Of a stretch of 64,000 nt of DNA, positions 2,379-29,500 are shown piece by piece (position 1 is the first letter of the stretch; every line of letters begins with the position of its first letter). The stretch comes from Gammaproteobacteria bacterium (lineage in GTDB: Bacteria; Pseudomonadota; Gammaproteobacteria; Steroidobacterales; Steroidobacteraceae). The stretch is taken from NCBI GenBank assembly GCA_025358295.1, contig JANYJY010000010.1:25913-89912 (forward strand). The letters run 5' to 3'. A program made the translations under genes and the position numbers. Below the pieces are notes generated by a model. The model did not search any database and was not told the origin of the DNA. It worked only from the letters and a program-made list of their open reading frames with translations.

Positions 2379-2423
2379 ACATCGGGCTCATCGCGTCGGC
2401 GCCTTCGGGCGCCGGGTGACCGC

Positions 2424-3506: not shown

Positions 3507-3516
3507 GAACTCATTC

Positions 3517-4469: not shown

Positions 4470-5251
4470 TGCCGCAATATACGATGAATGGCGTCGAGAC
4501 CGTCGGTCAGCGCCGCCGGACCCGGCTGCAGGATGATGGGGGATTTGATCTCGTGCAATTCGCCGTCGCGAACCGCGGGTACGCCCTCCCAGCCGGCCCT
4601 GGCCACGACGCGCTCCGGACGAAAGCGCTTGCCGCACCAGGAACCGAGAATGACATCCGGCGAACGGCGCACCACCTCCGAGGCATCGGCCAGAATACGA
4701 TCCTTGCCGAGTGCGCAAAGCGCACGCTCGGGGAACACATCGTCGCCGCCCGCGATACCGATCAATTCGCTCACCCAGCGAATGCCTGTAATCAAAGGTT
4801 CATCCCATTCCTCAAAGTAGACGCGTGGCCGGCGCGGCATTTGCGCGGCCGACTGGCGCACCGTTTCGATATGCGCTGCCAATCCGAGCGCATAGCGTTC
4901 CGCCGGTTCGGCGGCGCCCACCAGCGCGCCGAGCCGGCGTATATAGCCGAGGATGCCGTCCACCGAGCGATGGTTGCTGATCCAGACTTCGATTCCGTGC
5001 TTGATCAATGCCTGTGCGATATCGGCTTGGATGTCGGAGAAGCCCACCACAAAGTCGGGACGCAACTCGAGAATGCGATCAACTTTGGCGCTGGTGAAGG
5101 CCGAAACACGGGGTTTTTCGCGGCGCGCGCGCGCCGGACGCACCGTGAAACCGGAGATGCCGACAATGCGCTCCTCCATCCCCAGTGCGTAGAGAACTTC
5201 AGTAGGCTCTTCGGTGAGACAGACGATGCGGTGCGGATATCGATCGTCCAT
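4451..5251 (-). CDS. Cobalamin-binding protein, BtuF/periplasmic-binding-protein type 8 fold, no signal peptide
   Basis: 266 aa. It begins directly at the conserved PBP core (RIVCLTEEPTEVLYALG...ILELRPDFVV). There is no N-terminal hydrophobic signal segment. Confidence 0.65.
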   Translation of the reverse strand: MDDRYPHRIVCLTEEPTEVLYALGMEERIVGISGFTVRPARARREKPRVSAFTSAKVDRILELRPDFVVGFSDIQADIAQALIKHGIEVWISNHRSVDGILGYIRRLGALVGAAEPAERYALGLAAHIETVRQSAAQMPRRPRVYFEEWDEPLITGIRWVSELIGIAGGDDVFPERALCALGKDRILADASEVVRRSPDVILGSWCGKRFRPERVVARAGWEGVPAVRDGELHEIKSPIILQPGPAALTDGLDAIHRILRQWSLHR

Positions 5252-5257
5252 GCCCGA

Positions 5258-7051: not shown

Positions 7052-7056
7052 GGACC

Positions 7057-10000
7057 CTACATGTTGCGGCGGTAACGGCCGCCGACATCGTACAAAGTGT
7101 GAGTGATCTGACCGAGCGAACAACCCCGCACGGCCTCCATCAAGACCTCGAAAGTATTGCCGTTGTCGATGACGGTGCGCCGCAGCCTTTCAAGCAAAGT
7201 TTCCGACGCCTCGGCGTTGCGTTCGTGGAAGGACCGCAGACGCTTGAGCTGGGATTGCTTCTCCGCGTCCGTGGAGCGCGCCAATTCGATTGCCACGGGA
7301 GCAGCGTCGCTGTTTGGATTGCGGAAGGTGTTGACGCCGATGATGGGATAGGAGCCATCGTGCTTCTGGCGCTCGTAGAACAGCGATTCTTCTTGAATCT
7401 TGCCGCGCTGGTAGCCGGTTTCCATGGCACCTAGGACTCCGCCGCGTTCCGCGATGGCATCGAATTCCTTGAGCACGGCCTCCTCGACCAGATCCGTCAG
7501 TTCATCGATGATGAAGCTGCCCTGATTGGGGTTCTCATTCTTGGCCATGCCCCACTCGCGATTGATGATGAGCTGAATCGCCATGGCGCGGCGCACGCTC
7601 TCCTCGGTGGGCGTGGTCACCGCCTCATCGTAGGCGTTGGTGTGAAGGCTGTTGCAATTGTCATAAATGGCGCACAGCGCCTGCAGCGTGGTGCGTATGT
7701 CGTTGAACGCCATCTCCTGGGCGTGCAGCGAGCGGCCGGAAGTCTGCACGTGGTACTTGAGCTTCTGGCTGCGCTCATTCGCGCCATATCTATTCTTCAT
7801 GGCCACCGCCCAGATGCGCCGCGCCACCCGGCCGATGACCGAGTATTCGGGATCCATGCCGTTGGAGAAGAAAAACGACAGGTTCGGCGCAAAATCATCG
7901 ATGTGCATGCCGCGCGCGAGATACGACTCCACATAGGTGAAGCCGTTGGCGAGGGTAAATGCCAGCTGCGATATGGGGTTCGCGCCAGCCTCGGCTATGT
8001 GATATCCGGAGATCGAGACCGAGTAGAAATTCTGGACCTTGTGGTGGACGAAATATTCCTGCATGTCGCCCATCATCTTCAGGGCAAACTCAGTGGAAAA
8101 AATACAGGTGTTCTGTCCCTGATCTTCCTTCAGGATATCCGCCTGCACCGTGCCGCGCACGGTCGACAGCGTCCAAGCCTTGATCTTCTGCTGCTCGTCG
8201 GCGGTCGGCTCACGGCCGTTCTGCTGCTGGAACTTCTCCAGCTGCTGATCGACGGCGGTATTCATGAACATGGCCAGTATCATCGGCGCGGGCCCGTTGA
8301 TGGTCATCGATACTGAGGTGGTCGGCGCGCACAGGTCGAAGCCCGCATACAGCACCTTCATGTCATCCAGGGTCGCAATGGACACACCGGAATTGCCGAC
8401 CTTGCCGTAAATATCGGGGCGCAGGTCCGGATCCCAGCCGTACAGAGTCACCGAATCGAAGGCGGTGGACAGGCGGTGGGCCGGCATGCCCTCCGAGACC
8501 CGCTTGAACCGCTGATTGGTGCGGTACGCATCGCCCTCGCCTGCGAACATGCGCGTCGGATCCTCGCCCTCGCGCTTGAAGGCGAACACGCCGGCGGTAT
8601 AGGGATAGGAACCCGGCACGTTCTCCTTGAGCAGAAAGCGCAAGATCTCGCCATCGTCCTCGAAGCGCGGCAGCGATACCTTGCGGATCGAGGTGCCCGA
8701 CAGCGAGTCGTACGTGAGCTGGGTGCGGATCTCCTTGTCGCGAATCTTCACCACGTACTCGGGCTGCGCGTATAGCGCCAGAGTCGTCGGCCACTGCGCC
8801 AGAAGCTTGGCTGCCCCAGGATCGAGTTCGCCGCTCTTGGCGGCAATCATCTCATCGAAGCCCGCGATCGGCCGCCCCGCAGCCGCAAACAGGGTCTTGG
8901 ACGTACCCAACGACTGGCGCTCGCGCGCAATTCGCGACTGCGCCGCGATGAACCGATGGAAATCGCGCAGCGACGCCGATATCTCCGCCAGATAGCGGAC
9001 CCGCTCGGGTGGCACGATGGCACGGCCGCGCGAGGAGGACTTCACCGCCGCCTGCGGCAGCTTGCCTGGCCCCAGCTTCAGGCCCTTGTCCTGCAGGCGG
9101 GGCAACATGGCTTGATAGAGGGCGGTGACGCCGTCGTCGTTGAAGCGCGAGGCCATGGTGCCGTAAACCGGCATGGCGTCCGTGGGTTGCGCAAACCATT
9201 CGTGATTGCGCTGGTATTGCTTGCGCACGTCGCGCAGCGCGTCTTCGGACCCCTTGCGGTCGAATTTATTGATGGCGACGAAGTCGGCGAAATCGAGCAT
9301 GTCGATTTTTTCAAGCTGCGACGCGGCGCCGAATTCCGGCGTCATAACATACAGCGAGGTGTCGACCAGCGGCACGATGGCCGATTCGCCCTGCCCTATG
9401 CCGGAGGTCTCCACGACTATCAGGTCGAAGCCGCTGATCTTGCAGCAGGCCAGCACATCCGGCAGCGCCGCGGAGATTTCCGTGCCGGTATCGCGGGTCG
9501 CCAGCGAGCGCATGAATATCTTGTCCGACTCAATCGCATTCATCCGGATGCGGTCGCCCAGCAAAGCGCCTCCCGTGCGCTTGCGCGACGGGTCGATGGA
9601 AATCACAGCGACGCGGATGCTGTCGTTCTGGTCGAGACGCAGCCGCAGAATGAGCTCGTCGGTCAACGAGGATTTGCCGGCTCCGCCGGTACCCGTTATC
9701 CCCAGAATCGGCGTCTTAATGCCTGCCGCGGCCTGTAGCAGCGCCTGGCGCGTGCGCATGGTGTAGCTGCGATTTTCGATTGCAGTGATGACCCGCGCGA
9801 GTTGCCGCCGGTTGCCCGAACGCAGTGCCTCCAGCGCGTCGCCTTCCGCCGGCGCCAGTGCCGACAGGTCGTAGTCGCTGGTGCGGATGACATCGTCGAT
9901 CATGCCCTGCAGGCCCAGCTTTGCGCCGTCCTCGGGCGAATACAGGCGGGTCACCCCATAAGCCATCAGCTCGCGAATTTCGGCGGGCACGATCACGCCG

Positions 10001-10320
10001 CCGCCGCCGCCGAATACCTTGATGTTTTCCCCGCCGCTGCTGCGCAACAGATCCATCATGTACTTGAAAAATTCGACATGCCCGCCCTGATAGGACGTGA
10101 TCGCCACCCCCTGCACATCTTCCTGCAAGGCGGCGTTGACGATCTCCTGCACGGAGCGGTTGTGACCCAAATGGATGACTTCCGCTCCCGATGCCTGCAG
10201 CACCCGGCGCATGATATTGACCGACGCGTCATGACCGTCGAACAGGGAGGTCGCGGTCACGAACCGAACTTTATTCGCGGGCTGATAGACCGGCTTGGCG
10301 GCGATGGAAACGGCGCTCAT
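7057..10320 (-). CDS. icmF: Fused isobutyryl-CoA mutase (B12-binding domain + MeaB-like GTPase + mutase substrate domain)
   Basis: About 1087 aa from the ATG at 10320 ([14 protein letters not shown]...). Has an N-terminal B12 domain ([12 protein letters not shown]...GHN), a G3E GTPase P-loop ([10 protein letters not shown]) and a C-terminal methylmalonyl-CoA-mutase-like barrel. An alternative start at 10398 is possible. Confidence 0.92.
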
Positions 10321-10438
10321 AATTTTCTGCTCGCGTCCTTGGGGGCCCAGAATAACAGGCCTGAAGCCGTATTTTAGAGAACCAGGACACCGAAACAAAT
10401 GGCCAAATCCCGCGTCCGCGGTGAGCGAATTTGCAACA

Positions 10439-11251
10439 TCAGCCGGAGGGGCCGCCGCTCCAATTGGGGGGTCTCTTTTCGATGAACGCCGCGACGCCCT
10501 CTTGCGCTGACGCGTCGATCATATTGCAGGCCATGGCATTGCCCGCCAGCTGGTAAGCCGGCTCGATACCCAGTTCGATTTGGCGGTAGAAAAGGCTCTT
10601 GCCCGCCGCAATCGCAGCGCCCGGCTTCGCCGCGATCGCGGCCGCCACGGCATCGATTTCCGCATCGAGGCGCTCGGCCGGAACGCAGCGATTGATGAGC
10701 CCGCGCTGCGCGGCGGCCGCGGCATCGATGAATTCGCCCGTGACCAGCATCTCGAATGCTGCCTTGCGGCCCACATTGCGCGTCAGCGCCACCGACGGCG
10801 TGGCGCAAAATAAGCCCACATTGATGCCGGACACCGCGAAGCGCGCGGTATCGGCGGCGATCGCGATATCGCACATGCCCACGAGTTGGCAGCCGGCGGC
10901 GGTCGCCATGCCATGCACGCGCGCGATGACCGGTTGCGGCAACGACTGGATGCGCATCATCAAGCGGCTGCAGTCATCAAACAATCCTTGGTAATACTCC
11001 AAACGGGGATTGGCCTTCATCTGCTTCAAGTCATGGCCTGCACAAAACGCCTTGCCGGCGCCGCCGAGTACAACGACGCGCAGGCTGGGATCGGCCGCCA
11101 CCGTTGCAAGTGCATCCTGCAAGGCGGCCATCATCGCCTCGGACAAGGCGTTGAACTGCGCCGGACGATTCAGCGTGAGGTACGCGATACTGCCGCTGCG
11201 GCGCTGCAGAACCAGGGGATCGACTTCGGTCTTGGGGGCATCCGCGTTCAT
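10439..11251 (-). CDS. Enoyl-CoA hydratase/isomerase family protein
   Basis: About 270 aa from the ATG at 11251 (MNADAPK...), which follows an AAAGGAG SD. The listed start at 11287 is a TTG. Crotonase motifs: [12 protein letters not shown] and AFCAGHDLK. Confidence 0.85.
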
Positions 11252-11334
11252 TCTTGCAACTACACTCCTTTGCGTGAGTTTACGCAATTTATTCTCGAGA
11301 CATTACCTTATAAATATATCTTATAGGGTTGTTT

Positions 11335-11826
11335 TTATTCGTTTTTAGAATGCGCCAGCCCTTGCGGGCGCATGGCGACGAGATTGATGCTACGGCAGGT
11401 GAACACGATTTCGTCGCGCTGATTCAGCAAGCTGTAGCGAAGATCGACGATACCGCGGTTCGGATCTTTGCCGCTCACGCGCTTGGAGAGCGGTTCGGCG
11501 CGGGCACGCAGCGTATCGCCGGGCCTTACGGGGTTCGGCCAGCGCACATCCTCCCAGGCCACGCCGCAAATCCAATGAATGTCGCCGCTGATCTCATGAT
11601 CGAGGGTGCGCCAGAGGGCTGCGCTGTGAATGCCGGAAGCTATCACCTCGCCGAATATCGATTCTTTCGCAGCGACCGGATCGGCGTGAAAGTACTGTGG
11701 ATCATAGCGACGTGCGAATTCGAGCAACTCCTCGAGCTCGACCTTGCGGGCACTTGACTCACGCACATCGCCGATGACAAGGTCCTCGTAATAGCGACCG
11801 GCGGCAGCAGCAGCCGGCGCAGTCAT
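11335..11826 (-). CDS. MaoC-like (R)-specific enoyl-CoA hydratase / hot-dog fold dehydratase
   Basis: 163 aa. The hot-dog fold pattern is ...FARRYDPQYFHADPVAAKESIFGEVIASGIH.... Confidence 0.85.
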   Translation of the reverse strand: MTAPAAAAAGRYYEDLVIGDVRESSARKVELEELLEFARRYDPQYFHADPVAAKESIFGEVIASGIHSAALWRTLDHEISGDIHWICGVAWEDVRWPNPVRPGDTLRARAEPLSKRVSGKDPNRGIVDLRYSLLNQRDEIVFTCRSINLVAMRPQGLAHSKNE

Positions 11827-11840: not shown

Positions 11841-12425
11841 ATGAACGCCAACCAATCGTCCCGTGAAAAGGCTCTTACCCTCGAACAGCGCATTGCACGC
11901 CTCGAGGCGCGCACGGAAATACGCGAACTGGTGGCGCGCTATTGTTTCACCGTGGATGAGCGCGACGTGGAAGGCATTGGCCAATGCTTTACCCGCAACG
12001 GATGCTTCCGATCGTTGGACGGGGTCATGAATGCCACCGGTCGCGACGTGGTGGTCGCGCAGTTTCATGGACGCTTTGCCGTGCTCGGTCCGAGCAATCA
12101 CTTCACTCACGATCACATCATCGAATTCGACGAGCGCGACACCGCGCGCGCCACCGGCCTGGTCAATTCCCATGCCGAGGTCGTCCGTAACGATGCGCCG
12201 ATGCTGGCTTCACTGCGCTACCACGACGAATATCGCTTCGAGGATGGCCGTTGGCGGTTCGAGGCACGCACACTCTCCTTCTTCTATTACCTACGGCCGG
12301 CCGACTATCCGCAGGCCATGGGCGACATACTGCGCAACCGCGCCTATGAGAAACCGCAATCCGCCGATTTCCCCGAATCAGTGCCGAGCTGGCATCGCTA
12401 CTATCAGGAACACCCGCGTCCCTAA
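11841..12425 (+). CDS. NTF2-like (SnoaL_4-type) protein of unknown function
   Basis: 194 aa. The pattern LEARTEIRELVARYCFTVDERDVEGIGQCFT...RYHDEYRFEDGRWRF is typical of SnoaL-like/NTF2 cone proteins. Confidence 0.65.
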   Translation: MNANQSSREKALTLEQRIARLEARTEIRELVARYCFTVDERDVEGIGQCFTRNGCFRSLDGVMNATGRDVVVAQFHGRFAVLGPSNHFTHDHIIEFDERDTARATGLVNSHAEVVRNDAPMLASLRYHDEYRFEDGRWRFEARTLSFFYYLRPADYPQAMGDILRNRAYEKPQSADFPESVPSWHRYYQEHPRP

Positions 12426-12433: not shown

Positions 12434-14386
12434 TTATTGCGCTCGATAGGCCAGCAGCACATTTCCCGGCATGTGGAAATAGATTCCATAGCCTGAGTTG
12501 ACGATGACGAAACCGTCGCGGACAGCTGCGCCGGGACCGCCGAAGGAGCCGCCGTGAGCGGTGGCGCCCGACGTCGTGCGAACCTCCTGCGTGGTGTCGA
12601 ATTCCTTCAGCACCGCGCCGGTCTTGCCGTCGTAGGCGCGGAAGCGTCCGTCCATATGCCCGGCGAACACCACGCCGGGAACTGCAGTGACCGCCGCGGA
12701 GATGCCCGAATCGCAGAACGGCCGTCCCGCGCACACATCCGTCGCCGGCGTGGTCCACAGCACCTTGCCGGTGGCGGCATCGACCGCCGTGATTCCCGGC
12801 TGCGGCGCTTCCTTGGATGTGCGCCCCGTGTGCTCGTCCTTCATGTCGGATATGCCTGCGTAAATACGCGTGCCTTCCACGGCGACGCCGAAATGAATCC
12901 CGCCCTGGATGCCGCCGCGGCCGACACGCGTTTTCCACAGCAGCTTGCCGTGATCGTCGGGATCGAGGCCGAATAGCCAGCCGTTTTTCTGTGCTGCGAT
13001 GAGAATGTCGTGACCCGATGGCAGGGGCACCAGCACCGTGCCCGCACCGAAATCAACGTCTGGACCGTTCTCGGCCGGACAATTCGGATGGTCTATCGCC
13101 ATCATGCAGCCGACATTCCAGGCATCCCCGGCGAGCGCCTGGTAGGACCACATCATGTGACCGTCGCGCAGGCGAAATGCCAGCACCGAATCGCTGGTAT
13201 CGCTCGCCGGCGAGGAATAATTCTCGCCCGTGCCCACATACACCACGCCGCGCTTCCAATCCACCATGGGACTGTTCCAGATCGGCGCACCCGAGGGCGC
13301 GAAGATCCGCTTGCCGCTGGCCAGGGTCTTTACCGCGACCGGTTCCTGAGGAATCGAATAGGCCTTCCAGCGCTGCACGCCGTCGCGCACATTGAGCGCG
13401 ACTACTGCGCCGCGGAACTTGCAGCATTCGTAATTGGCATCGGCTGCGGTGGTCACCTCCAAAGAGGAGATGGGCACATACAGGGTCTCGGCGCTGAACG
13501 TCGGCGTCGCAGTGATGGTGGCGTTGGGATGATCGTCCACCTTGGCGCTCCACGCGAGCTTGCCGGTGAGCGCGTCGATGGAATACACGCGTGCGATCAC
13601 GTCGCCGAAGAACAATCGCCGCACCGGCTTGCCGTCGGCGTCCTTTTGCTCGTACGGCACGACGCCGGTGCGTACTTCGGCGCCCGCCTTGAAGGTCCAG
13701 CGCACGCAGCCGCTGCTGCGGTCGAGGGCATAAACCGTGCCGTCATAGCTGCCGACGTACACCGCCCCATAGGCAATGCTGGGCTGCGAACGGGCGCGAA
13801 TACCGCCGGGAAACTCGAAGGCCCAGGCGAGTTGCAGGTTGCGGACACCGGCCGCCGGCAGGCCTGCCGCGCCCGAGTCGACGAAGCGCGAATTGTTGTA
13901 GCCCCAGCCGGCTCGCAAAGGCGCCTCGGCCGTATCGAATTGCGCAGCCGCAGCCAGGCACATTTTCGGATGAGCATAATTCCGCGCCGCCGTGAGCGGA
14001 CCGCCGGACAGATATTCGGCCACCTGCACTCGCTGCGGCTCGCTCAAGGCCTGCGCCTGGCCCGCCATGAGCCCATGGGTGAGCGCCTCGTGAATGGTGG
14101 GCCCCGACAACATCTGCAAGAACATTTTTTGCGGCGCCTTCGGCACCTGGCCTTCATGACATTGCGCGCAATGATTCTTGAACACGGCGGCGCCGGGCAA
14201 AGTTTCCGGATCCACCGCCAGCTTGCGGGTGTCGAGTTCCGACACACTCTTGAGCGCATGCGGCGTTTCCGTGGTCTCAGGAGCTGCGGGGGGCACCGCA
14301 GCCATGGCTGCGCCGGTGGCGACGATACTGCAGGCCGCAAAGCAGCTCAGCAGGAATCCATGGCGCCTACTTTGTATATGTCTCAT
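12434..14386 (-). CDS. Exported quinohemoprotein: N-terminal cytochrome c domain + PQQ beta-propeller dehydrogenase (polyvinyl-alcohol-dehydrogenase-like)
   Basis: 650 aa. Has a Sec-type signal (MRHIQSRRHGFLLSCFAACSIVATGAAMA), a CAQCHEG haem c site, and repeated W-containing propeller blades (e.g. GSYDGTVYALD, GKLAWS). The start ATG overlaps the E1-beta stop (ATGA). Confidence 0.85.
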   Translation of the reverse strand: MRHIQSRRHGFLLSCFAACSIVATGAAMAAVPPAAPETTETPHALKSVSELDTRKLAVDPETLPGAAVFKNHCAQCHEGQVPKAPQKMFLQMLSGPTIHEALTHGLMAGQAQALSEPQRVQVAEYLSGGPLTAARNYAHPKMCLAAAAQFDTAEAPLRAGWGYNNSRFVDSGAAGLPAAGVRNLQLAWAFEFPGGIRARSQPSIAYGAVYVGSYDGTVYALDRSSGCVRWTFKAGAEVRTGVVPYEQKDADGKPVRRLFFGDVIARVYSIDALTGKLAWSAKVDDHPNATITATPTFSAETLYVPISSLEVTTAADANYECCKFRGAVVALNVRDGVQRWKAYSIPQEPVAVKTLASGKRIFAPSGAPIWNSPMVDWKRGVVYVGTGENYSSPASDTSDSVLAFRLRDGHMMWSYQALAGDAWNVGCMMAIDHPNCPAENGPDVDFGAGTVLVPLPSGHDILIAAQKNGWLFGLDPDDHGKLLWKTRVGRGGIQGGIHFGVAVEGTRIYAGISDMKDEHTGRTSKEAPQPGITAVDAATGKVLWTTPATDVCAGRPFCDSGISAAVTAVPGVVFAGHMDGRFRAYDGKTGAVLKEFDTTQEVRTTSGATAHGGSFGGPGAAVRDGFVIVNSGYGIYFHMPGNVLLAYRAQ

Positions 14387-15405
14387 GCCCTGTCCTCGTC
14401 CTTTAGTGCTTGGCGGATGGCTGCTTCGATTCGCGGCGGCCCGGGTACGTACAGGCGCTCGAGCGCCGGCGCGAACGGAATCGGCGTATGCGGTGGCGTC
14501 ACTTGGATGATGGACCGCTTGAGCGAGCGAAAGGCTTTTTGCCCGACGATGGCAGCAATATCGCTGGCCATGCCGCAGCGCGGCGGCGATTCATCGACGA
14601 TGACCAGCCGGCCGGTTCCTTGCACGCTTTCAATGATGGTGTCCTCGTCCAACGGCGAGGTGGTGCGCGGATCGATGAGATCGCAGGTAATCCCCTCCTT
14701 GGCGAGTGCATCGATGGCGCGCTCCGCGAAGGGCACCATGCGTGCAATGGCGACCACGGTCACGTGCTCGCCTTCGCGCACCAGAGCCGCCTCACCGAAG
14801 GGCACGGTGTAGGCAGCCTCCGGCACCTCGCCCTTGCGTGGATACAGCGCCTTGTGCTCGAAGAAAATCACCGGATCATCGTCGCGGATGGCCTGGATTA
14901 ACAGACCTTTCGCGTCGTAGGCATTGGAAGGGACAACGACTTTCAATCCGGGCACGGCCGTCAGCAGCGAATAGATGGCCTGCGAATGCTGCGGCCCCAT
15001 GTTCATGCCCGCGCCCATCGCCATGCGGATGACGACCGGGCAGGTGCTCTTGCCGCCGAACATGTAGCGAAACTTGGCTATCTGGTTGTAGATCTGATCC
15101 ATGCACACGCCGACGAAGTCGGCGAACATGATTTCAGCGACCGGCCGCAGGCCGGCCAGCGCCGCGCCGGCAGCGGCGCCAACGATAGCCGATTCGGAAA
15201 TCGGCGTATCGATCACGCGGTCCTCGCCGAACTTGGGCAACAGCCCTTTGGTCACGCCGAAAATACCGCCCGAGGCTTCACGCTCGCCGGAGGTGCCGCC
15301 GGCGCCGCCGGAGACATCTTCGCCGAGCACGATGACGCGTTCATCGCGCGCCATCTCTTGGTGCAGTGCTTGGTTGAGCGCATCGCGCATAGTGATCTGC
15401 GGCAT
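14383..15405 (-). CDS. TPP-dependent dehydrogenase E1 component, beta subunit (AcoB-like)
   Basis: 340 aa. Motifs include VIVLGEDV, VIDTPISESAIVGAAAGAAL and a transketolase-like C-terminal domain. Confidence 0.9.
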   Translation of the reverse strand: MPQITMRDALNQALHQEMARDERVIVLGEDVSGGAGGTSGEREASGGIFGVTKGLLPKFGEDRVIDTPISESAIVGAAAGAALAGLRPVAEIMFADFVGVCMDQIYNQIAKFRYMFGGKSTCPVVIRMAMGAGMNMGPQHSQAIYSLLTAVPGLKVVVPSNAYDAKGLLIQAIRDDDPVIFFEHKALYPRKGEVPEAAYTVPFGEAALVREGEHVTVVAIARMVPFAERAIDALAKEGITCDLIDPRTTSPLDEDTIIESVQGTGRLVIVDESPPRCGMASDIAAIVGQKAFRSLKRSIIQVTPPHTPIPFAPALERLYVPGPPRIEAAIRQALKDEDRA

Positions 15406-15429
15406 GATGAAATGAGTGTCCCTGGGAAT

Positions 15430-16410
15430 TCAGTACTGGATGTAGACGTCTGAGTAGAGATCCGCTTCGACAGGAGGCAGTGCGGCCTTGGCCTCCCTGA
15501 CGGCGGCATCGATCTGCGCCACGGCCTCTTGATCGATGGCGTCGAGCTCCGCCTGCGGCACGGAGCGATCGGCCTCGGTGCGCGCCCGGAAGCGCTTCAG
15601 GCAGTCCATGGTTACGCGCAGCTTCGCCACCTCATCCTTGGCACGATAGTTTTGTGGGTCGCCTTCGAAGTGGCCGTAGTAGCGCGTGATCTTGGCTTCG
15701 ATGGTGCTCGGGCCCTCGCCGTTCTTGGCGCGCGCCACGGCGCGCCCCATGGCGTCGTACATGGCGTGAAAATCGGCGCCGTCGACACACTCGGCGGGCA
15801 TGCCGAAGGCGCGGGAGCGTCCGGCGAGATCGCGCGAGCCCACGGCGTAGGCAGCTCCGGTGTGTTCGCTGTAGCCGTTGTTCTCCAATATGAATATCGC
15901 CGGCACGCGCAGCACCACGGCCATGTTCATGGCCTCGAAGACCGTGCCCTGATTGGCGCTGCCGTCGCCGCCGAAGGCCACACTCACGAAGCGGTTGCCA
16001 CGCAGCTTGCAGGCGATCGCGGCGCCCACCGCGATGGGCGGACCGCCGCCGACGATGGCGTTGGCGCCCAACATTCCCTTGGTCATATCGGCGATATGCA
16101 TGGACCCACCCTTGCCATGGCACAGACCGTCCTTGCGTCCGTAAATTTCCTTCATCATCCCGCCCACATCGCAGCCCTTGGCAATACAGTGGCCGTGCCC
16201 GCGGTGCGTGCTGACGATGTAGTCGGAGTCGCTGAGCTGCTCGCACACACCCACCGCGACGGCCTCCTGCCCCGCATACAGATGCGTGAACCCCGGGATC
16301 TCACCGGTGGCAATCTCGACATGCAGTCGTTCTTCGAACTCGCGGATGAGCTTCATCTGCCGGTAGGCGCGCAGCAGCCGCTCCTTGCTTAAGTTCACAC
16401 TGAAGGTCAT
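15430..16410 (-). CDS. TPP-dependent dehydrogenase E1 component, alpha subunit (acetoin-dehydrogenase AcoA-like)
   Basis: 326 aa. Has STHRGHGHCIAKG and the GDGSANQG TPP motif, which I recognise as the AcoA-type signature rather than PDH or BCKDH E1-alpha. The start overlaps the Rieske gene stop (ATGA). Confidence 0.9.
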   Translation of the reverse strand: MTFSVNLSKERLLRAYRQMKLIREFEERLHVEIATGEIPGFTHLYAGQEAVAVGVCEQLSDSDYIVSTHRGHGHCIAKGCDVGGMMKEIYGRKDGLCHGKGGSMHIADMTKGMLGANAIVGGGPPIAVGAAIACKLRGNRFVSVAFGGDGSANQGTVFEAMNMAVVLRVPAIFILENNGYSEHTGAAYAVGSRDLAGRSRAFGMPAECVDGADFHAMYDAMGRAVARAKNGEGPSTIEAKITRYYGHFEGDPQNYRAKDEVAKLRVTMDCLKRFRARTEADRSVPQAELDAIDQEAVAQIDAAVREAKAALPPVEADLYSDVYIQY

Positions 16411-17798
16411 TTACCCTCTCCTAATGTCCATGTGCCGCGAGCGGTGCCCGGCGGAAACAAATAGTCGTCGATCACTTTGTGAAAGTGTCGGATGCGCAGT
16501 TCCTGGCGCCCCAGCCACAGGCCGCGGAAGCCGCGCGAATGCATCCCGGCCTGCACATTCGGCAGATTGGCGGCGTCCTGATCGAGCACCAAGCCGATGG
16601 ATTTGTCGCCGTGTTTCCACTCCTGGTGCTTGGCGCGCTGCGGCCATTCCTGCCCCGCCGGGATCAGCTCATAGGTCCAGATGTCGTAGTACATCTTGTT
16701 CGGATCCGTGGCATGCGGCCGCTGGCGAAACACCCAGAAGTCATCGGCATGCAGATTGAGCGAGAGATTGGGGAAAATCGTGTAGTGATAGTCATCCGTG
16801 AGCTGATCGTCGTTCAGCTCCGAATAATCCCTGCCCTGCCCGGCGCCCCGCGCCCGCTTCTGTTTCTGCACGTCGCGGCGAATATTGGCGATCGGCTCAT
16901 CGTAGTCGGCCGGATCCATGCCCGCGCCCTTCATGATGGACTTGATGGAATCGGGAATGGTGTTCGGCTTGCGCACACGCGGCGACAAGGTCGCGAAGGG
17001 AATGAGGTAGCGATTGTGGCGATCGTAGCAATCGATCTGAATGTCCAGGTCGTGCAGGTACCAGAGCAACTGCGGATGAATGCCCTGAACGTGATAGCTC
17101 TCGTTGAAGGCATCGACGGAGGCCTTCCAATTGCAATCCCACTCCACAGTAATGTCGCGCGTCTGCACCATGCGCTCGAAGTGATAGGGATCGAGATGCT
17201 GAGGGATGGGCCGCAGAAATTCCTCCAGCGGCTCGGCATCCGGATTCATGGAGAACCACACAAAGCTGCCCCACTCCGTGCACTTCACTTCGCTCATGCC
17301 GTAGGGCGGCGCGCCCTGCTCAAAGGTGTCGAGATCGGGAATGCGCCGGTACGAGCCGTCGAGGTTGTATTCCCAGTGATGGTAGAGACACTTGAAGGTT
17401 TGGCTGGCCCCCGCCGAGCCCCGGCCGCAGGGGCGCAAGCGATTGCCGCGGTGCTGACAGACATTGTAAAAGCCGCGCGCGCTGCCGTCGGCCTGCCTGA
17501 CGACGATGATGGACTCCGCGCCCACTTCGGTCACGATGTAGTCGCCGGGTTCCGGCATGTCGAGCGAGCGGCCCGCGACCAGCCACACCTTGGTCCACAT
17601 CCGTTCCCACTCTAGCCGCATGAATTCTGCGGAGGTATAGCGGCGCTGATCGATCACGCCTGCCTCGAGCACAGGGTCCGGAACTTTTTCGTGCGGCGTG
17701 CCGGGCAACACGCCGTTGCGGCCGTCCGCACCCGGCTTGACCCGCGGCACCTTGGTATAGGGCGGAGATTTCGAGCGGCTGTGCAAATCGTCGGACAT
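16407..17798 (-). CDS. Rieske [2Fe-2S] non-haem-iron oxygenase, alpha subunit (paralog 1)
   Basis: About 463 aa. Has Rieske CQHRGNRL...CLYHHW and the mononuclear-iron motif NESYHVQGIHP. The listed start at 17804 is a TTG; the ATG at 17798 lies 2 nt after the ThuA-like stop. Confidence 0.88.
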   Translation of the reverse strand: MSDDLHSRSKSPPYTKVPRVKPGADGRNGVLPGTPHEKVPDPVLEAGVIDQRRYTSAEFMRLEWERMWTKVWLVAGRSLDMPEPGDYIVTEVGAESIIVVRQADGSARGFYNVCQHRGNRLRPCGRGSAGASQTFKCLYHHWEYNLDGSYRRIPDLDTFEQGAPPYGMSEVKCTEWGSFVWFSMNPDAEPLEEFLRPIPQHLDPYHFERMVQTRDITVEWDCNWKASVDAFNESYHVQGIHPQLLWYLHDLDIQIDCYDRHNRYLIPFATLSPRVRKPNTIPDSIKSIMKGAGMDPADYDEPIANIRRDVQKQKRARGAGQGRDYSELNDDQLTDDYHYTIFPNLSLNLHADDFWVFRQRPHATDPNKMYYDIWTYELIPAGQEWPQRAKHQEWKHGDKSIGLVLDQDAANLPNVQAGMHSRGFRGLWLGRQELRIRHFHKVIDDYLFPPGTARGTWTLGEGK

Positions 17799-17800
17799 GA

Positions 17801-18598
17801 TCAATTCCTCGTGCCGCGCGGCATCGACGCCCAGCGTATCCCTCGCCGCAGCAGCTCATGATACACAGGCAATTTCCAGCTGCCGCGTTCCACCGTGGGG
17901 TATTCCGCCATCATCGGACGCATATCGTACTTGCCTCGACAATGCCCGAGCGTGCAATACAACACCTCGCCCCCGGCGTAGGGATGCAGATACATCACCA
18001 GCTGCCGGTCACCCGGCATCTCAGTGCCCTGGCTGCCGGTTTCCGACACGGGCCGCGGCCACAGCTGCGCCGTGAATCCCGGAGCCTCGCCCCGATAATT
18101 CGTATGCAGCAGAGCGTGCTGAGTCCCATGGTACTCGCACAGGTACAGCTCATCGTCCACCTCGAAGGGTTCGATGCCCGCAACCAGGGGATGCGATGAA
18201 TCGCTCACCTCAACCTTGTAAGGGGCGATCGGCGGATGCGCGACGAATTGGCTGCCCAGCATGGCCATGAAATCCGGCGCGGTTCGCGGCGCATCCCAGC
18301 CGCGGCCCTTGAGAAATCGCAGCACCGAATTCGTGCCGTGCAGCGCCAGCCAGCGTCGTCCGGTTGACAAAAAATCGCGTAATGCAGACTGTTCGGCGTG
18401 CGCCGGAATGACGTCGCAGGTGTAGGTGATGAGAAAATCGCTGGCAGCGATCGCCGCGACGTCGCGGTAATCCTCGGCCACGCGAACGCGGATGTGCTCG
18501 TGCTCGGCAAGCAGCTTCAGGATCTCCAGCCGTGCGTAATCCATGTCGTGGTATAGCCCGCCACAAACCAGGTAGCCGTTCACTGGAGCAGTTGCCAT
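17801..18598 (-). CDS. ThuA-domain (class I glutamine-amidotransferase-like fold) protein
   Basis: 265 aa. The layout is ...DFLITYTCD...WLALHG...FVAHPP...F.VDDELY, as in ThuA-like proteins. Family assignment is from memory of the domain pattern only. Confidence 0.6.
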   Translation of the reverse strand: MATAPVNGYLVCGGLYHDMDYARLEILKLLAEHEHIRVRVAEDYRDVAAIAASDFLITYTCDVIPAHAEQSALRDFLSTGRRWLALHGTNSVLRFLKGRGWDAPRTAPDFMAMLGSQFVAHPPIAPYKVEVSDSSHPLVAGIEPFEVDDELYLCEYHGTQHALLHTNYRGEAPGFTAQLWPRPVSETGSQGTEMPGDRQLVMYLHPYAGGEVLYCTLGHCRGKYDMRPMMAEYPTVERGSWKLPVYHELLRRGIRWASMPRGTRN

Positions 18599-18639
18599 GG
18601 CAGCCTGCTAGCGCGTTGGCATCGCCGCGGCGCGGGCGA

Positions 18640-19401
18640 TCATAACTGCACGCGTTTCGTGAAGCCGTTGTCGGCCACGATGTTCGCGCCGGTGACCAAG
18701 CTTGAGGCCGGGCTCGCAATGAAAACGATGATGCGCGCGATTTCTTCCACTGTGCCCATGCGCCCGCAGGGGATCTGTTTCATGATCGAGTCGAAGAACT
18801 TCGCCTGAGTGCCCTTGATCATCTCCCAGGCACCGCCTTCGAAGTAGATCGGTCCGGGCGACACGGTATTCACACGTACGGCTTTCTTGCCCACATATTG
18901 CGACAGCTGCTTGGAATAGGTAATCAATCCGGCCTTGATGGCGTTGTAGGCCATGGGCGCGGCAAAGGTTTCCACCGCATTGGTCGAGCCGATGATTACG
19001 ATGGAACCGGATCCGGATTTCTCCAGATGCGGCATGAGCGCCTCGCAGCCGCGCACGGTGTGCAGCATGTCGATTTCGAAATTCCGCACCCAATTCTTTT
19101 CACTGTCCATGCCGCCGCCGCCGCTGACACCGGGAATGAATATGTCGCAGCCGCCGAGCGCGGTTGCCGCCCGCTCCAACCACGCCTTGTACGCCTCACC
19201 GTCGCGCACGTTCACGGCCTCACCGAACACTTCCACGTCGGGGCGTTTTACGGCTTCAACCGCCTGGGCGACTTCCTCCGGGGTACGGGCGCAGAATGCG
19301 ACATTGACGCCCTCGGCCACCAGCAGTTCGACCACACCGCGTCCGATGCCCTTGGTCGCACCCGTGACTATTGCTCGCTTGCCCCGTAGCCCAAGATCCA
19401 T
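18640..19401 (-). CDS. Short-chain dehydrogenase/reductase
   Basis: 253 aa from the ATG at 19401 (MDLGLRGKRAIVTGATKGIGRG), with a GGAG SD upstream. Catalytic motif YNAIKAG. The listed start at 19452 is a TTG that would run into the palindrome at 19451. Confidence 0.85.
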   Translation of the reverse strand: MDLGLRGKRAIVTGATKGIGRGVVELLVAEGVNVAFCARTPEEVAQAVEAVKRPDVEVFGEAVNVRDGEAYKAWLERAATALGGCDIFIPGVSGGGGMDSEKNWVRNFEIDMLHTVRGCEALMPHLEKSGSGSIVIIGSTNAVETFAAPMAYNAIKAGLITYSKQLSQYVGKKAVRVNTVSPGPIYFEGGAWEMIKGTQAKFFDSIMKQIPCGRMGTVEEIARIIVFIASPASSLVTGANIVADNGFTKRVQL

Positions 19402-19450: not shown

Positions 19451-19468
19451 AAACAGTCAAGACTGTTT
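19451..19468. promoter_or_regulatory. Island palindrome site 1: AAACAGTCAAGACTGTTT (perfect 8+8 inverted repeat)
   Basis: Lies in the intergenic gap, about 50 nt upstream of the SDR ATG at 19401 that heads the SDR - ThuA - Rieske - E1ab - PQQ operon. An A-run precedes it and a T-run follows. Confidence 0.6.
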
Positions 19469-19474: not shown

Positions 19475-20230
19475 TCACTGGGCTATCAGGCCATTGTCGA
19501 TGACGATTTCCGTCGCATTGACGAATCGCGACTCGTCCGACGCAAGATAAACCACCAAATTCGCGACGTCTTCGGGTTTGCCCAGTCCCACGGCAGTGTT
19601 GTACACCGACATGGACATGCCCAATTCAGCCGTGGCCTTCACCACCATGGGTGTCTCGATAGCGCCGGCGTGAATGGAATTGCAGCGCACATTGTAATTA
19701 TTCATCTGGCAGTGCACCGCAATAGCCTTGGTCATCGAGCGCACGGCGCCCTTGGCCGCCGAGTAGGCATAAAACACCGGATACCCCAGGTGGGTGGCCG
19801 TCGAGCACATATTGATGATGGAGCCGCCCCCGGACTCCTTCATCACTGGGATTCCATACTTGCAGGCGAGAAAAACGCTGTCCGTCATGACGCGCAGGTG
19901 CGCGTGAAATTGATCCAGGGTGGCGGACTCCGGCGTGCCGATCACCACCATGCCGGCGTTATTCACCAGCACATGCAGGCCGCCGAAACGGCGCCGGGTC
20001 TCTGCGAAAACCTCCTGCCAGCGGCTCTCGCTGGATACATCGTGCACGAGAAATAGGGTGCTGCCCGCCCTGGCGGCATTCAATTCCGCCTCCAAAGCAC
20101 GGCCTGCAGCCTCATTGATGTCCGTGATCACGACGCTGGCGCCTTCCCGAACTAATGCTGAGGCGTCCGCCTTGCCGAGACCGGAAGCCGCCCCGGTTAC
20201 CAATGCCACCTTGCCGCTGACTCGACCCAT
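19475..20230 (-). CDS. Short-chain dehydrogenase/reductase (hydroxysteroid-dehydrogenase-like classical SDR)
   Basis: 251 aa. Motifs: VALVTGAASGLGKA, NNAG, YSAAKGA. Confidence 0.88.
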   Translation of the reverse strand: MGRVSGKVALVTGAASGLGKADASALVREGASVVITDINEAAGRALEAELNAARAGSTLFLVHDVSSESRWQEVFAETRRRFGGLHVLVNNAGMVVIGTPESATLDQFHAHLRVMTDSVFLACKYGIPVMKESGGGSIINMCSTATHLGYPVFYAYSAAKGAVRSMTKAIAVHCQMNNYNVRCNSIHAGAIETPMVVKATAELGMSMSVYNTAVGLGKPEDVANLVVYLASDESRFVNATEIVIDNGLIAQ

Positions 20231-20384: not shown

Positions 20385-21035
20385 ATGGCAGCAAATGGAC
20401 CAGGATCGAGCAGCGGCGTAGGCGAGGCCTTGGCGCCCGTCGGTTGGCAGGCTCAAAAGAGCGCATCGACGCGCACCCAGATCATCGAAGCGGCCATCAA
20501 ATGCCTGGTCGAATTGGGGTATGCCCGCACCACTACCGCCGTGATCGCCGAAAAGGCCGGCTTATCGCGCGGTGCCATGCTGCACCATTTTCCGTCGAAA
20601 ATGGACATCGTCAGAGCGGCCGTCGACTACTTGCATGCAAAGCGGCTGCGCGCCATGCGCAAGTCCATGGCTAAGGAACCCATCGATGGCGATCACGTCA
20701 GGCTGGGCGTGCAAAGTTACTGGACTCATGTCAAACATCCCTGGTTCGTCGCCTTTTTCGAACTCGCGGTGGCGGCGCGCACGGACAAGGAACTCGCCGC
20801 CATTTTATTCCCCGCGCAGGAAGCCTTTGAAAAGGAGTTCTTGACCACCAGCCTCGAATTCTTTCCCGAATGGAAGCGCAAGGGCGAAAAATTCCTGCTG
20901 GGCTTCGACCTAAGCCGCTATGTGATGGAAGGCATGGCCATCAGCTTCTTGACGCACAAGGAGACCGAGCGCGATCAGCGCGTGCTGCGTTACCTGGAAG
21001 AGAAGCTCACGGAACTGGCCGGCGAGGATCGATAG
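20385..21035 (+). CDS. TetR/AcrR-family transcriptional regulator
   Basis: 216 aa. Has an N-terminal HTH (TRTQIIEAAIKCLVELGYARTTTAVIAEKAGLSRGAMLHHFPSK). It is the only regulator gene inside the central island. Confidence 0.88.
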   Translation: MAANGPGSSSGVGEALAPVGWQAQKSASTRTQIIEAAIKCLVELGYARTTTAVIAEKAGLSRGAMLHHFPSKMDIVRAAVDYLHAKRLRAMRKSMAKEPIDGDHVRLGVQSYWTHVKHPWFVAFFELAVAARTDKELAAILFPAQEAFEKEFLTTSLEFFPEWKRKGEKFLLGFDLSRYVMEGMAISFLTHKETERDQRVLRYLEEKLTELAGEDR

Positions 21036-21712: not shown

Positions 21713-22054
21713 ATGTCGAATAAAATGTCCGTGGCCGTGCCCTTGAGCGAAGTCCCGGCGGGAACCATGCATGCCTGCAGCGTCGGCGGCCGGGAAATCG
21801 TCATCTGCCGCACCAAGGACGGCATCTACGCGCTCGACAACATCTGCACGCATGCCTATGCCCGGCTCAACGAAGGCCGCCTGCGCGGCACGCGGCTCAT
21901 CTGCCCCTTGCATGGCGCGTCGTTCGACATTCGCGACGGGCGCGCACTGGGCGCTCCCGCGACGCGCGCGCTCGCCACTCATGCCGTCACCGTGGTCGAT
22001 GATCGCGTGGAAGTGACTCTGACGTCCGCCGAGCCCGGCAAGCTCACGCTGTAG
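21713..22054 (+). CDS. Rieske-type [2Fe-2S] ferredoxin (oxygenase electron-transfer component)
   Basis: 113 aa from the internal ATG at 21713 of the listed ORF 21470..22054: MSNKMSVAVPLSEVPAG...CTHAYARL...CPLHGASFDIRDG (CxH...CxxH). Confidence 0.85.
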   Translation: MSNKMSVAVPLSEVPAGTMHACSVGGREIVICRTKDGIYALDNICTHAYARLNEGRLRGTRLICPLHGASFDIRDGRALGAPATRALATHAVTVVDDRVEVTLTSAEPGKLTL

Positions 22055-22068: not shown

Positions 22069-23238
22069 TCACTTGGAATCCCGTTGCGCGAAGCGGCGGC
22101 CCACCATGGCCGCAGCGATGTTGACCTTTTGAATATCGATGGCACCGCCGGCGATACCCCAACCCCAGGCATCGCGCAGGCGCCGCTCCATCGGATACTC
22201 GCGGGAATAGCCGTATCCGCCCATTAATTGCACCGCATGTCCGGTCACTTCTCGGGCAATCTCGTTCGCGAAGCATTTCGCCGTCGATGACTCGATGACG
22301 CTGGGCATTCCAGCCTGCGCGTTGCTGGCAGCTCGCCAGATCAACAAGCGCGCGGCGTCCACCTTGATTCGCATGTCGGCGAGGCGCAGTTGCACCGCTT
22401 GGAATTCCACGATGGGTTTGCCGAATTGCCGCCGCTCCTGTACGTAGGCGAGAACATCCTCGAGCGCGCCGCTCGCCTGCGCGAGCGCCATGGTGGCATT
22501 GCCGCAGCGCTCCAGATCGAAGGCCTCCATGAGGCGCTTGAAGCCGCCGGCGGGCACGATTACATTCGAGAGCGGCACCGTGCAATTCTCGAAGTACAAA
22601 TCCGAAGACGGTACGCCGCGAAAGCCCATCAACGACTCGGGTTTACCGAAACTCAACCCCGGCGCGTCCTTCTCGACGTATACGGCGCCGATGCCTTTGG
22701 CGCCGGGAGCATCAGACATACGGCAATACGCCACATAGCCGTCGGCATGACCGCCGCCCGAACACCAACGCTTGCTGCCGTTGATCACCACACTCTGGCC
22801 GCGAATTTCTGCGCGGGTGGTCAGATCCGTCAGCGCCGAGCCGGCGCCGGGCTCGGACATGGCAATGGCGACGACGATTTCGCCGCTGCAAACGCGCGGC
22901 ACGATGCGCGACTTGAGTTCGCCATTGGCGAATTGTTCTATCGCGCGCACCGGGCCCACGCAGGACTCGAACACCGGAAACGCAACGGCAGAGGAGATCT
23001 TGCCGAACTCCTCCAGCACGATGAGCGCCTCGAGATTGCCCTGCCCCAAACCGCCCAACGCCTCGGGGATGTTGATGCCGAGAAAGCCGTGGCTCGCGAA
23101 TTCCGCGATGAGTTCACGGGACGGCGGCTCACCGCTGGTCTCGATCTGCTGCGCAATCGCCGGCAATCGCTTCTGCGCATATTCGCGTGCAGCCCCCTGC
23201 AGCGCACGCTGCTCTTCGCTCAGAGTAAAATCCAACAC
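22069..23238 (-). CDS. Acyl-CoA dehydrogenase
   Basis: 389 aa with a classical ACAD layout (LDFTLSEEQRAL...; GYGYSREYPMERRLRDA). GTG start preceded by a GAGG SD. Confidence 0.9.
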   Translation of the reverse strand: MLDFTLSEEQRALQGAAREYAQKRLPAIAQQIETSGEPPSRELIAEFASHGFLGINIPEALGGLGQGNLEALIVLEEFGKISSAVAFPVFESCVGPVRAIEQFANGELKSRIVPRVCSGEIVVAIAMSEPGAGSALTDLTTRAEIRGQSVVINGSKRWCSGGGHADGYVAYCRMSDAPGAKGIGAVYVEKDAPGLSFGKPESLMGFRGVPSSDLYFENCTVPLSNVIVPAGGFKRLMEAFDLERCGNATMALAQASGALEDVLAYVQERRQFGKPIVEFQAVQLRLADMRIKVDAARLLIWRAASNAQAGMPSVIESSTAKCFANEIAREVTGHAVQLMGGYGYSREYPMERRLRDAWGWGIAGGAIDIQKVNIAAAMVGRRFAQRDSK

Positions 23239-29488: not shown

Positions 29489-29500
29489 GTGCGGTATGCG

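Follow-up and report, generated by a model that had tools for sequence, protein, structure and literature searches.

Described systems related to the locus

The acetoin dehydrogenase system (AcoA, AcoB, AcoC and AcoL) is encoded in Klebsiella by acoABCD together with acoK, and it also occurs in Cupriavidus, Pseudomonas, Bacillus and Pelobacter. To our knowledge, E1/E2 complexes of the acetoin type are known almost solely for acetoin itself. In this work, we analysed a stretch of 64,000 nt from a gammaproteobacterium of the family Steroidobacteraceae (contig JANYJY010000010.1; the whole stretch is hereafter called the window), in which six minus-strand genes at positions 12434-19401 encode a short-chain dehydrogenase (SDR1), a ThuA-like protein, a Rieske oxygenase, the two subunits of an AcoA/AcoB-type E1 and an exported pyrroloquinoline quinone (PQQ)/haem c dehydrogenase. 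With moderate confidence, we propose that the genes from SDR1 to the PQQ enzyme form one repressor-controlled catabolic operon within a conserved regulon of about 40 kb, which would act as an acyloin/diketone cleavage module. As in the acetoin dehydrogenase system, the E1 is heteromeric and thiamine-dependent, the motif STHRGHGHCIAKGCD is shared, the pattern of NCBIfam scores is the same and the lipoyl N-terminus of the E2 is AcoC-like. In contrast, the window operon is devoid of E2, E3 and an AcoR/AcoK regulator and has instead a TetR gene and a palindromic operator, and its type of E1 is in all cases found together with a Rieske oxygenase, an SDR and an exported PQQ/haem c dehydrogenase. Since this E1 is embedded in a coenzyme A (CoA)-dependent catabolic regulon, its substrate is probably not acetoin.

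Two other groups of characterized enzymes are comparable with individual products of the operon. PvaA, the polyvinyl alcohol dehydrogenase (cytochrome) of EC 1.1.2.6, is known from Sphingopyxis sp. 113P3 and Pseudomonas sp. VM15C; the window PQQ protein resembles it in being exported and in having an N-terminal CXXCH haem c domain followed by a PQQ beta-propeller, but its orthologous group is a separate one, marked by adjacency to an AcoAB-type E1/E2. The Rieske oxygenase resembles the alpha-only Rieske monooxygenases (carnitine monooxygenase CntA, glycine betaine GbcA, stachydrine demethylase Stc2 and ketosteroid 9-alpha-hydroxylase KshA), which combine a Rieske [2Fe-2S] domain with a mononuclear iron domain, have no beta gene and use a separate electron-transfer partner. 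However, the likeness is limited to residues ~50-245, the C-terminal, substrate-binding part is unrelated, and the protein scores far under every equivalog cut-off (133 against 670 for GbcA).

At the level of gene clusters, an annotated plasmid of Niveispirillum cyanobacteriorum TH16 (NZ_CP025614.1) encodes orthologues of SDR1 (59%), SDR2 (59%; a second short-chain dehydrogenase, described below), the Rieske oxygenase (64.5%), the ThuA-like protein (55%) and E1 alpha (67%), as well as E1 beta, E2, a Rieske ferredoxin, an acyl-CoA dehydrogenase, a MaoC protein and a TonB receptor. It differs from the window in gene order, and a truncated polyvinyl-alcohol-dehydrogenase-like (PVADH-like) gene is located at a distance of about 20 kb. 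Plasmid pNL2 of Novosphingobium aromaticivorans DSM 12444 (NC_009427.1) carries a Rieske-ThuA pair, SDRs, acyl-CoA dehydrogenases, a DUF35/thiolase pair, E1 alpha-E1 beta-E2, a VOC protein and a TonB receptor; here too the gene order is different, and a PVADH-like gene was not seen in this stretch of pNL2. Because its Rieske oxygenase is just 32% identical, the pNL2 cluster represents a related but distinct system. The bile-salt side-chain cluster of Sphingobium Chol11 was also considered as an analogue and rejected as a different system: it has a Rieske monooxygenase and no E1/E2. A search of the literature returned no description of the operon's combination of enzymes, in agreement with a previous statement, made from the window sequence, that no described pathway is known to join them.

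Organization and integrity of the operon

The listing of open reading frames (ORFs) and a read-out of the junctions confirmed six consecutive co-directional genes, and the domain calls of all six were upheld by Pfam and NCBIfam:

18640-19401, minus strand: SDR1, short-chain dehydrogenase of 253 residues (Pfam adh_short_C2), first gene of the operon
17801-18598, minus strand: ThuA-like protein of 265 residues (Pfam ThuA, PF06283)
16407-17798, minus strand: Rieske oxygenase alpha subunit (Pfam Rieske and Ring_hydroxyl_A), read from an ATG; a TTG at 17804 is likewise open
15430-16410, minus strand: E1 alpha, AcoA-type, of 326 residues (Pfam E1_dh)
14383-15405, minus strand: E1 beta, AcoB-type, of 340 residues (Pfam Transket_pyr and Transketolase_C)
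12434-14386, minus strand: PQQ/haem c dehydrogenase of 650 residues (Pfam PQQ, PQQ_2 and Cytochrome_CBB3), last gene of the operon

An ATGA overlap joins the stop of E1 beta to the start of the PQQ gene at 14383-14386 (GCATGAGA), a second one joins the Rieske and E1 alpha genes at 16407-16410 (AAATGACC), and the ThuA stop is separated from the Rieske ATG by 2 nt (TGA-TC-ATG, 17799-17800). The remaining gaps measure 24 nt (E1 alpha/E1 beta) and 41 nt (SDR1/ThuA). This anatomy, including both overlaps, the 2-nt gap and the protein motifs, is as an earlier note on the window had stated. Overlaps of four bases between stop and start codons are common in operons and unremarkable alone. A simple scan of the coding strand within 12434-19401 found neither promoter-like nor terminator-like sites, and the six genes are presumably co-transcribed. 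Among RNA runs, none was found to contain this sequence.

Sediment metagenomes provide independent Logan contigs that run across the E1 beta/PQQ junction, and therefore this junction is real and not an artefact of assembly. It is also crossed by a contig from an insect-gut metagenome (run X5), in which 18 of 539 bases differ (~97% identical). The related strain in that run has single-base insertions just behind positions 12435 and 19465, the latter inside the operator described below. All six genes are under purifying selection. When compared with an E2-containing relative (locus L002), the ratio of nonsynonymous to synonymous substitutions (dN/dS) was 0.04-0.05 for E1 alpha and E1 beta (0.041 for E1 beta) and 0.07-0.13 for the other four genes; these values indicate that the E1 is still strongly constrained.

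Conservation in related genomes and origin of the E1 beta/PQQ overlap

One genome per species was scanned with an alignment of the PQQ homologues, which yielded 80 loci onto which the window proteins were mapped; the adjacency counts are restricted to loci whose sequence extends 8 kb or more upstream of the PQQ gene. E1 beta lies immediately upstream of the PQQ gene in 14 of the 15 loci in which the PQQ protein is at least 60% identical, in 11 of 13 at 53-60% identity and in 2 of 22 below 53%. Thus, at 53% identity or more, 25 of the 28 well-flanked loci (the core loci) have this arrangement, which answers the question of whether it is unique to this genome: it is not. In the closest group (at least 60%), the Rieske oxygenase and SDR1 are each present in 15/15. 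The carriers are mostly Steroidobacteraceae and unclassified gammaproteobacterial metagenome-assembled genomes (MAGs) from soil, sediment, lakes and glacier streams, and orthologous sets in rearranged order occur in the Alphaproteobacteria N. cyanobacteriorum TH16 (on the plasmid mentioned above), N. lacus and Allopontixanthobacter sediminis. The operon is conserved in dozens of soil and freshwater bacteria.

About 31 related loci have an additional gene of ~1.2 kb at the junction of E1 beta and the PQQ gene, and its product in L002 and L012 is an E2 with lipoyl, E3-binding and acyltransferase domains. This gene is missing from the window, from the insect-gut relative and from loci L011, L027 and L070. 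The closest relative of the window, L002, has operon proteins that are 85-94% identical and retains the E2, which indicates that the loss in the window lineage was recent. The overlap between E1 beta and the PQQ gene is thus a derived, lineage-specific consequence of the loss of E2. The translational coupling that had been emphasized at this junction stands in so far as the overlap is real, but it is lineage-specific, since the two genes are separated by E2 in those ~31 relatives. The deeper association of E1 with the PQQ enzyme is real and conserved, even though the overlap itself is derived. Two other loci (L009 and L023) have E1 genes in the equivalent place, upstream of the PQQ gene, but with an identity to the window E1 of only 38-53%, suggesting that there the original E1 was replaced by a different type.

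The window contains one E2 gene:

49389-50618, minus strand: the only E2 in the window, with lipoyl, E3-binding and acyltransferase domains (Pfam), ~35 kb from the operon

Given that this E2 is 58% identical to the in-operon E2 of L002, it is a paralogue and not a relocated copy. Its pattern of NCBIfam profiles is that of Klebsiella AcoC, its N-terminus matches the AcoC model at 125 bits, and a copy of the operator lies 94 nt upstream, at 50712-50727. It is a probable partner of the operon E1, and the earlier suggestion of this pairing remains credible given the 58% identity to the E2 of L002 and the shared operator. The gene is solitary, with no adjacent E1 or E3, and it diverges from a third Rieske oxygenase gene (50782-52143), with the operator copy between them.

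A candidate operator and its regulon

The spacer upstream of SDR1 contains a perfect palindrome. The motif AACAGTC-NN-GACTGTT occurs at seven sites in the window when three mismatches are allowed, against 0.94 expected, and all seven are intergenic:

19452-19467: operator palindrome AACAGTCAAGACTGTT (AACAGTC-AA-GACTGTT), perfect over 16 bp, with A/T-rich flanks, 51 nt upstream of the SDR1 start
27114-27129: copy upstream of a TonB-dependent receptor gene
28196-28211: copy between a glutathione S-transferase (GST) gene and the second Rieske oxygenase gene
33744-33759: copy between an SDR gene and an acyl-CoA ligase gene
39127-39142: copy upstream of the second AcoA-like gene
46622-46637: copy between the second PVADH-like gene and the second TonB receptor gene
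50712-50727: copy between the E2 gene and the third Rieske oxygenase gene

In nearly all related loci, the motif is present 60-110 nt upstream of SDR1 as well as at other intergenic sites, and this includes some Alphaproteobacteria. A weak promoter-like pair that overlaps the operator can be discerned by eye (-35 TTGTTT, 19452-19447; -10 TACACT, 19429-19424), which the scan did not flag. The shared copies tie the distant E2 to the operon and define a regulon of ~40 kb. These results support the idea that the operon is one unit of a multi-operon regulon that would also comprise the second AcoAB-like pair, the second PVADH-like gene and two more Rieske oxygenases.

Two genes upstream of the operator are relevant to its control and to the limits of the operon:

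19475-20230, minus strand: SDR2, short-chain dehydrogenase (Pfam), 73 nt upstream of SDR1; a seventh co-directional gene that the earlier note did not include
20385-21035, plus strand: TetR-family regulator (Pfam TetR_N), divergent, present in 26/28 core loci and likewise absent from the earlier note

The TetR protein is, by association, a candidate repressor for the palindrome. No other regulator was found in the ~11-53 kb region, referred to here as the island, and none of the AcoR/AcoK type among the window proteins scanned. SDR2 was considered as the first gene of the operon and rejected in favour of SDR1; the conserved operator in the spacer between both genes supports the 5' boundary of the operon at 19401. 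SDR2 sits upstream of the operator and beside the TetR gene, next to which it is kept in 27/28 core loci, and it is probably a separate transcription unit.

The E1 component

The E1 alpha subunit carries the STHRGHGHCIAKG motif, which begins at residue 67, and a thiamine diphosphate motif, GDG-x26-NN, at residue 148. As reference we used an operon of Klebsiella michiganensis, found by a translated plasmid search, with the order LuxR-type regulator-E1 alpha-E1 beta-E2-lpdA, which we take to be acoK-acoABCD as known from K. pneumoniae. E1 alpha is 61-62% identical to Klebsiella AcoA and E1 beta is 60% identical to AcoB, and the active-site histidine segments YGHFEGD (alpha) and QHSQ (beta) are common to both enzymes; the motif shared with the acetoin system is invariant between E1 alpha and Klebsiella AcoA. 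Against the pyruvate dehydrogenase model TIGR03182, E1 alpha scored 308.2 bits, below the cut-off of 393.85, and against TIGR03181 it scored 202.6 bits, below the cut-off of 411.35. Klebsiella AcoA was likewise sub-threshold with TIGR03182 (320 bits), and the window E1 and E2 display the same sub-threshold pattern against the pyruvate dehydrogenase models as Klebsiella AcoA, AcoB and AcoC. At the family level, these comparisons support an AcoA/AcoB-type E1, as had been recognized previously, and not an ordinary pyruvate or 2-oxoacid E1; we infer that it may act on alpha-hydroxyketones.

The main rival explanation is that E1 and E2 form a true 2-oxoacid dehydrogenase. In that case, the Rieske oxygenase and the SDR would turn an acid into its 2-hydroxy and then its 2-oxo derivative, and E1/E2 would decarboxylate the latter to an acyl-CoA one carbon shorter, an alpha-oxidation that could serve, for example, beta-branched isoprenoid acids. 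The E2 has the canonical lipoyl/E3-binding/acyltransferase composition and is best matched by a pyruvate dehydrogenase E2 model. The top profiles for E1 are also pyruvate dehydrogenase models, and the best solved structure for E1 alpha is the human pyruvate dehydrogenase E1 alpha, at just 185 bits. The JGI names of close E1 alpha homologues vary ('pyruvate dehydrogenase E1 component alpha subunit', 'pyruvate/acetoin dehydrogenase' and 'acetoin:DCPIP oxidoreductase'), and many bear the first of these. In addition, there are branched-chain and CoA-related neighbours, that is, IcmF, an HMG-CoA-lyase-like gene and enoyl-CoA hydratases. Nevertheless, every pyruvate dehydrogenase equivalog cut-off was missed (E1 alpha by 308 to 393.85), the E1 is far nearer to Klebsiella AcoA/AcoB, with which it has the AcoA motif in common, and the N-terminus of the E2 fits the AcoC model; we consider this explanation unlikely.

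The similarity to Klebsiella AcoA/AcoB would also be expected of an ordinary acetoin/2,3-butanediol operon with passenger genes, in which SDR1 would be the butanediol/acetoin dehydrogenase and E1 would cleave acetoin. Both SDRs do match the butanediol dehydrogenase/acetoin reductase models, but weakly (scores of 113 and 164 bits), far under the 270-bit cut-off of BudC. Moreover, the Rieske oxygenase, SDR1 and the PQQ enzyme are kept with E1 in essentially all close relatives, an AcoR/AcoK-type regulator and an lpd gene are missing, and the operator is common to the operon, the TonB receptors, the CoA ligase, the other Rieske oxygenases and the P450 neighbourhood. We regard this reading as quite improbable.

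A second AcoA/AcoB-like pair is encoded at 39151-40143 and ~40145-41173, its E1 alpha being 58% identical to the first. Directly after it comes a PQQ dehydrogenase gene (41418-43457) whose product has a signal peptide and a propeller of the glucose/quinate type; this is a second, independent case in the window (39151-43457) of E1 and PQQ genes side by side.

The exported PQQ/haem c dehydrogenase

The N-terminus of the PQQ protein, MRHIQSRRHGFLLSCFAACSIVATGAAMA/AV, was judged by eye to be a Sec signal peptide. The CAQCH haem c site begins at residue 73, and C73, C76 and H77 are invariant across the alignment of homologues; Pfam places Cytochrome_CBB3 at residues 63-126 and PQQ from 177-425 onward. 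Among more than 3,000 homologues, many are named 'polyvinyl alcohol dehydrogenase (cytochrome)' by JGI. The plasmid-encoded PvaA of Sphingopyxis sp. 113P3 is homologous over ~90% of the length and 36% identical, and its locus comprises an oxidised-PVA-hydrolase (oph)-like gene, the PQQ gene, a major facilitator superfamily gene and a cytochrome c gene. Neither an oxidised-PVA hydrolase nor a dedicated cytochrome c gene adjoins the window PQQ gene. The previous description of this enzyme as polyvinyl-alcohol-dehydrogenase-like is borne out for the architecture, an N-terminal haem c domain with a PQQ propeller in Pfam and in the homologues; beyond the architecture, the enzyme is a distant paralogue of genuine PVA dehydrogenases, at 36% identity, and no oxidised-PVA hydrolase lies alongside.

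The association between this gene and E1 could in principle be one of mere neighbours without a functional link, the overlap being an accident of the E2 deletion. The overlap is indeed secondary, and PQQ homologues below ~53% identity are mostly without an adjacent E1. However, the adjacency in the 25 of 28 well-flanked loci persists over family-level divergence and the genes recur, rearranged, in Alphaproteobacteria, while behind the second AcoAB-like pair of the window there is again a PQQ dehydrogenase gene, from another subfamily; we therefore give very little weight to this possibility. That the operon serves the degradation of polyvinyl alcohol or synthetic polyols, with a genuine PVA dehydrogenase whose oxidised fragments the other enzymes would process, agrees with the PvaA-like architecture and with the JGI/KEGG-style name of the homologues, but it is practically dismissed by the low identity to the Sphingopyxis enzyme, by a gene neighbourhood unlike the oph-pvaA-cytC locus and by the abundance of this PQQ family in MAGs from pristine soil, lakes and glacier streams.

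A second PVADH-like haem c/PQQ gene (44722-46581, with CATCH at residue 41) encodes a protein 46% identical to the first; its end overlaps by 4 nt with a cytochrome P450 gene (43454-44725), and both form the block 43454-46581.

The Rieske oxygenase, the ThuA-like protein and SDR1

The translation of the Rieske gene contains the [2Fe-2S] cluster motif CQH-x20-CLYH and, at residue 229, the iron motif D-x3-E-x2-H-x4-H (DAFNESYHVQGIH). The nearest solved structures are CntA and its relatives, matched over the N-terminal half only, and no gene for a small (beta) Rieske subunit adjoins the alpha gene. A probable electron donor for the Rieske oxygenases is encoded nearby:

21713-22054, plus strand: Rieske-type ferredoxin (Pfam Rieske), co-located with the PQQ gene in most related loci

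The ThuA-like protein scored 61.1 bits against Pfam ThuA (cut-off 33.4), and no sequence match was found for it in the PDB. Its AlphaFold2 model reached a predicted local distance difference test (pLDDT) score of 75.7, with poor regions around residues 173-195 and 220-242, and the best Foldseek match of this model was 4jqs, a 'putative ThuA-like protein' (E 3.5e-9). The model and the profile match thus confirm the predicted ThuA/class I glutamine-amidotransferase-like fold. Neither the operon nor the island was found to contain a ThuB-type Gfo/Idh/MocA oxidoreductase or sugar transport genes; ThuA has a Rieske oxygenase as its conserved partner here. The ThuA-like family has many invariant cysteines and histidines (C12, H17, C61, H87, H121 and CTLGHCRG at 215-222), which may form a metal or redox site. 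SDR1 reached no NCBIfam equivalog cut-off.

Genes of the surrounding island

Three genes close to the operon and the TetR gene recur in related loci:

22069-23238, minus strand: acyl-CoA dehydrogenase (Pfam), found at 70-91% identity in 22/28 core loci and also in the alphaproteobacterial loci
11335-11826, minus strand: MaoC-type hydratase (Pfam)
11841-12425, plus strand: SnoaL-like protein (Pfam), convergent on the end of the operon

In many relatives, the MaoC/SnoaL-like pair is located between SDR2 and SDR1. The oxygenases of the island are three alpha-only Rieske proteins, with one Rieske ferredoxin, and one P450; further components are two AcoAB-like E1 pairs, one E2, two PVADH-like genes and a third PQQ dehydrogenase (glucose/quinate type) directly after the second E1 pair. 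Besides two TonB receptors, there are several SDRs, three GSTs and two members each of the VOC and ABM protein families. The CoA-related genes encode an acyl-CoA dehydrogenase, an acyl-CoA ligase, a family III CoA transferase, a MaoC hydratase and a DUF35/thiolase pair. A large part of the gene set also stays together in the relatives, Alphaproteobacteria included.

At 28277-35495, a Rieske oxygenase, a DUF35 protein (ChsH2-like OB-fold), an SCP-x-type thiolase, an SDR and an acyl-CoA ligase are grouped in a manner that recalls the modules for removal of steroid or ibuprofen side chains. The three GST genes of the operator-marked island lie at 27224-28150, 36863-38116 and 38113-39030. On one side, at 53930-57757, a fused hydantoinase A/B of 1275 residues shows sub-threshold similarity to subunits of caprolactamase/acetophenone carboxylase and adjoins the 3-hydroxy-3-methylglutaryl-CoA (HMG-CoA)-lyase-like gene and an enoyl-CoA hydratase gene. 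On the other, a branched-chain acyl-CoA block (852-11287) comprises an aldehyde dehydrogenase, an ECH_2 protein of the 3-hydroxyisobutyryl-CoA-hydrolase type, an SDR, a B12-type periplasmic binding protein, a long acyl-CoA dehydrogenase and a fused isobutyryl-CoA mutase, IcmF-like (7057-10398).

Proposed role of the operon

The operon is built of known enzyme families. In the acyloin/diketone cleavage module that we favour, the periplasmic quinohaemoprotein would oxidise a hydroxyl group of the incoming compound, whose entry probably occurs via the TonB-dependent receptors of the regulon. An alpha-hydroxyketone or 1,2-diketone would be made in the cytoplasm by SDR1 and the Rieske monooxygenase, the latter supplied with electrons by the Rieske ferredoxin encoded nearby. 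The thiamine-dependent AcoAB-type E1 would then cut the C-C bond beside the carbonyl and pass the acyl half to the lipoyl E2, which would result in an acyl-CoA and an aldehyde. Further processing of these products could fall to the acyl-CoA dehydrogenase, CoA transferase, thiolase, MaoC hydratase and SDR2 encoded in the neighbourhood. The window genome, after losing its in-operon copy, presumably relies on the paralogous E2 at 49389-50618, which has the same operator.

Several observations weigh against this scheme. The operon here has no E2 of its own, no E3 was found among the window proteins scanned, and a ferredoxin reductase gene was not found in the window. The two E1 alpha paralogues of the window, at 58% identity, are no closer to each other than either is to Klebsiella AcoA, and an identity of 60% to AcoA leaves the substrate specificity of the E1 unfixed. 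The ThuA-like gene is present in 8/15 loci of the closest group (PQQ protein at least 60% identical) and in 8/13 related loci, so that it is missing from roughly a third to a half of them and is dispensable in many lineages. The link between TetR and the operator is one of association, and the spacer between TetR and SDR2 contains no copy of the palindrome. Finally, the periplasmic PQQ enzyme could act on a different molecule from that processed by the cytoplasmic enzymes.

A more specific version of the cleavage module, possible in our view but doubtful, is an undescribed, oxygen-dependent C-C cleavage next to a ketone. The PQQ enzyme or an SDR would produce the ketone from a secondary alcohol, the Rieske oxygenase would hydroxylate it at the alpha position, and E1/E2 would split the resulting acyloin into an acyl-CoA and an aldehyde; this route would be the core of a conserved, TetR-repressed regulon of ~20 genes directed to an abundant natural substrate. 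If so, an alicyclic ketone could undergo ring opening by an alternative to the route of Baeyer-Villiger monooxygenase and lactonase, and the substrate might be a terpenoid, an alicyclic compound or a lignin-derived ketol, used through a regulon that is widespread in soil and freshwater Steroidobacteraceae and some Alphaproteobacteria. Steroids, lignin beta-ethers (three GST genes), ibuprofen-like compounds (Rieske oxygenase, DUF35/thiolase pair and CoA ligase) and terpenoids are all neither supported nor excluded by the gene content.

The cleavage module would give a physiological context to a large, abundant subfamily that is routinely mislabelled 'polyvinyl alcohol dehydrogenase', and the regulon marked out by its conserved operator can be tested. 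Experiments are within reach because cultured carriers exist: N. cyanobacteriorum TH16, N. lacus 1-14 and A. sediminis KCTC 42453. The fixed partnership of this E1 with a Rieske oxygenase, an SDR and a PQQ enzyme, in dozens of uncultured genomes from soil, sediment and freshwater and a few cultured Alphaproteobacteria, points to a broader role for thiamine-dependent acyloin cleavage, in the breakdown of larger natural compounds.

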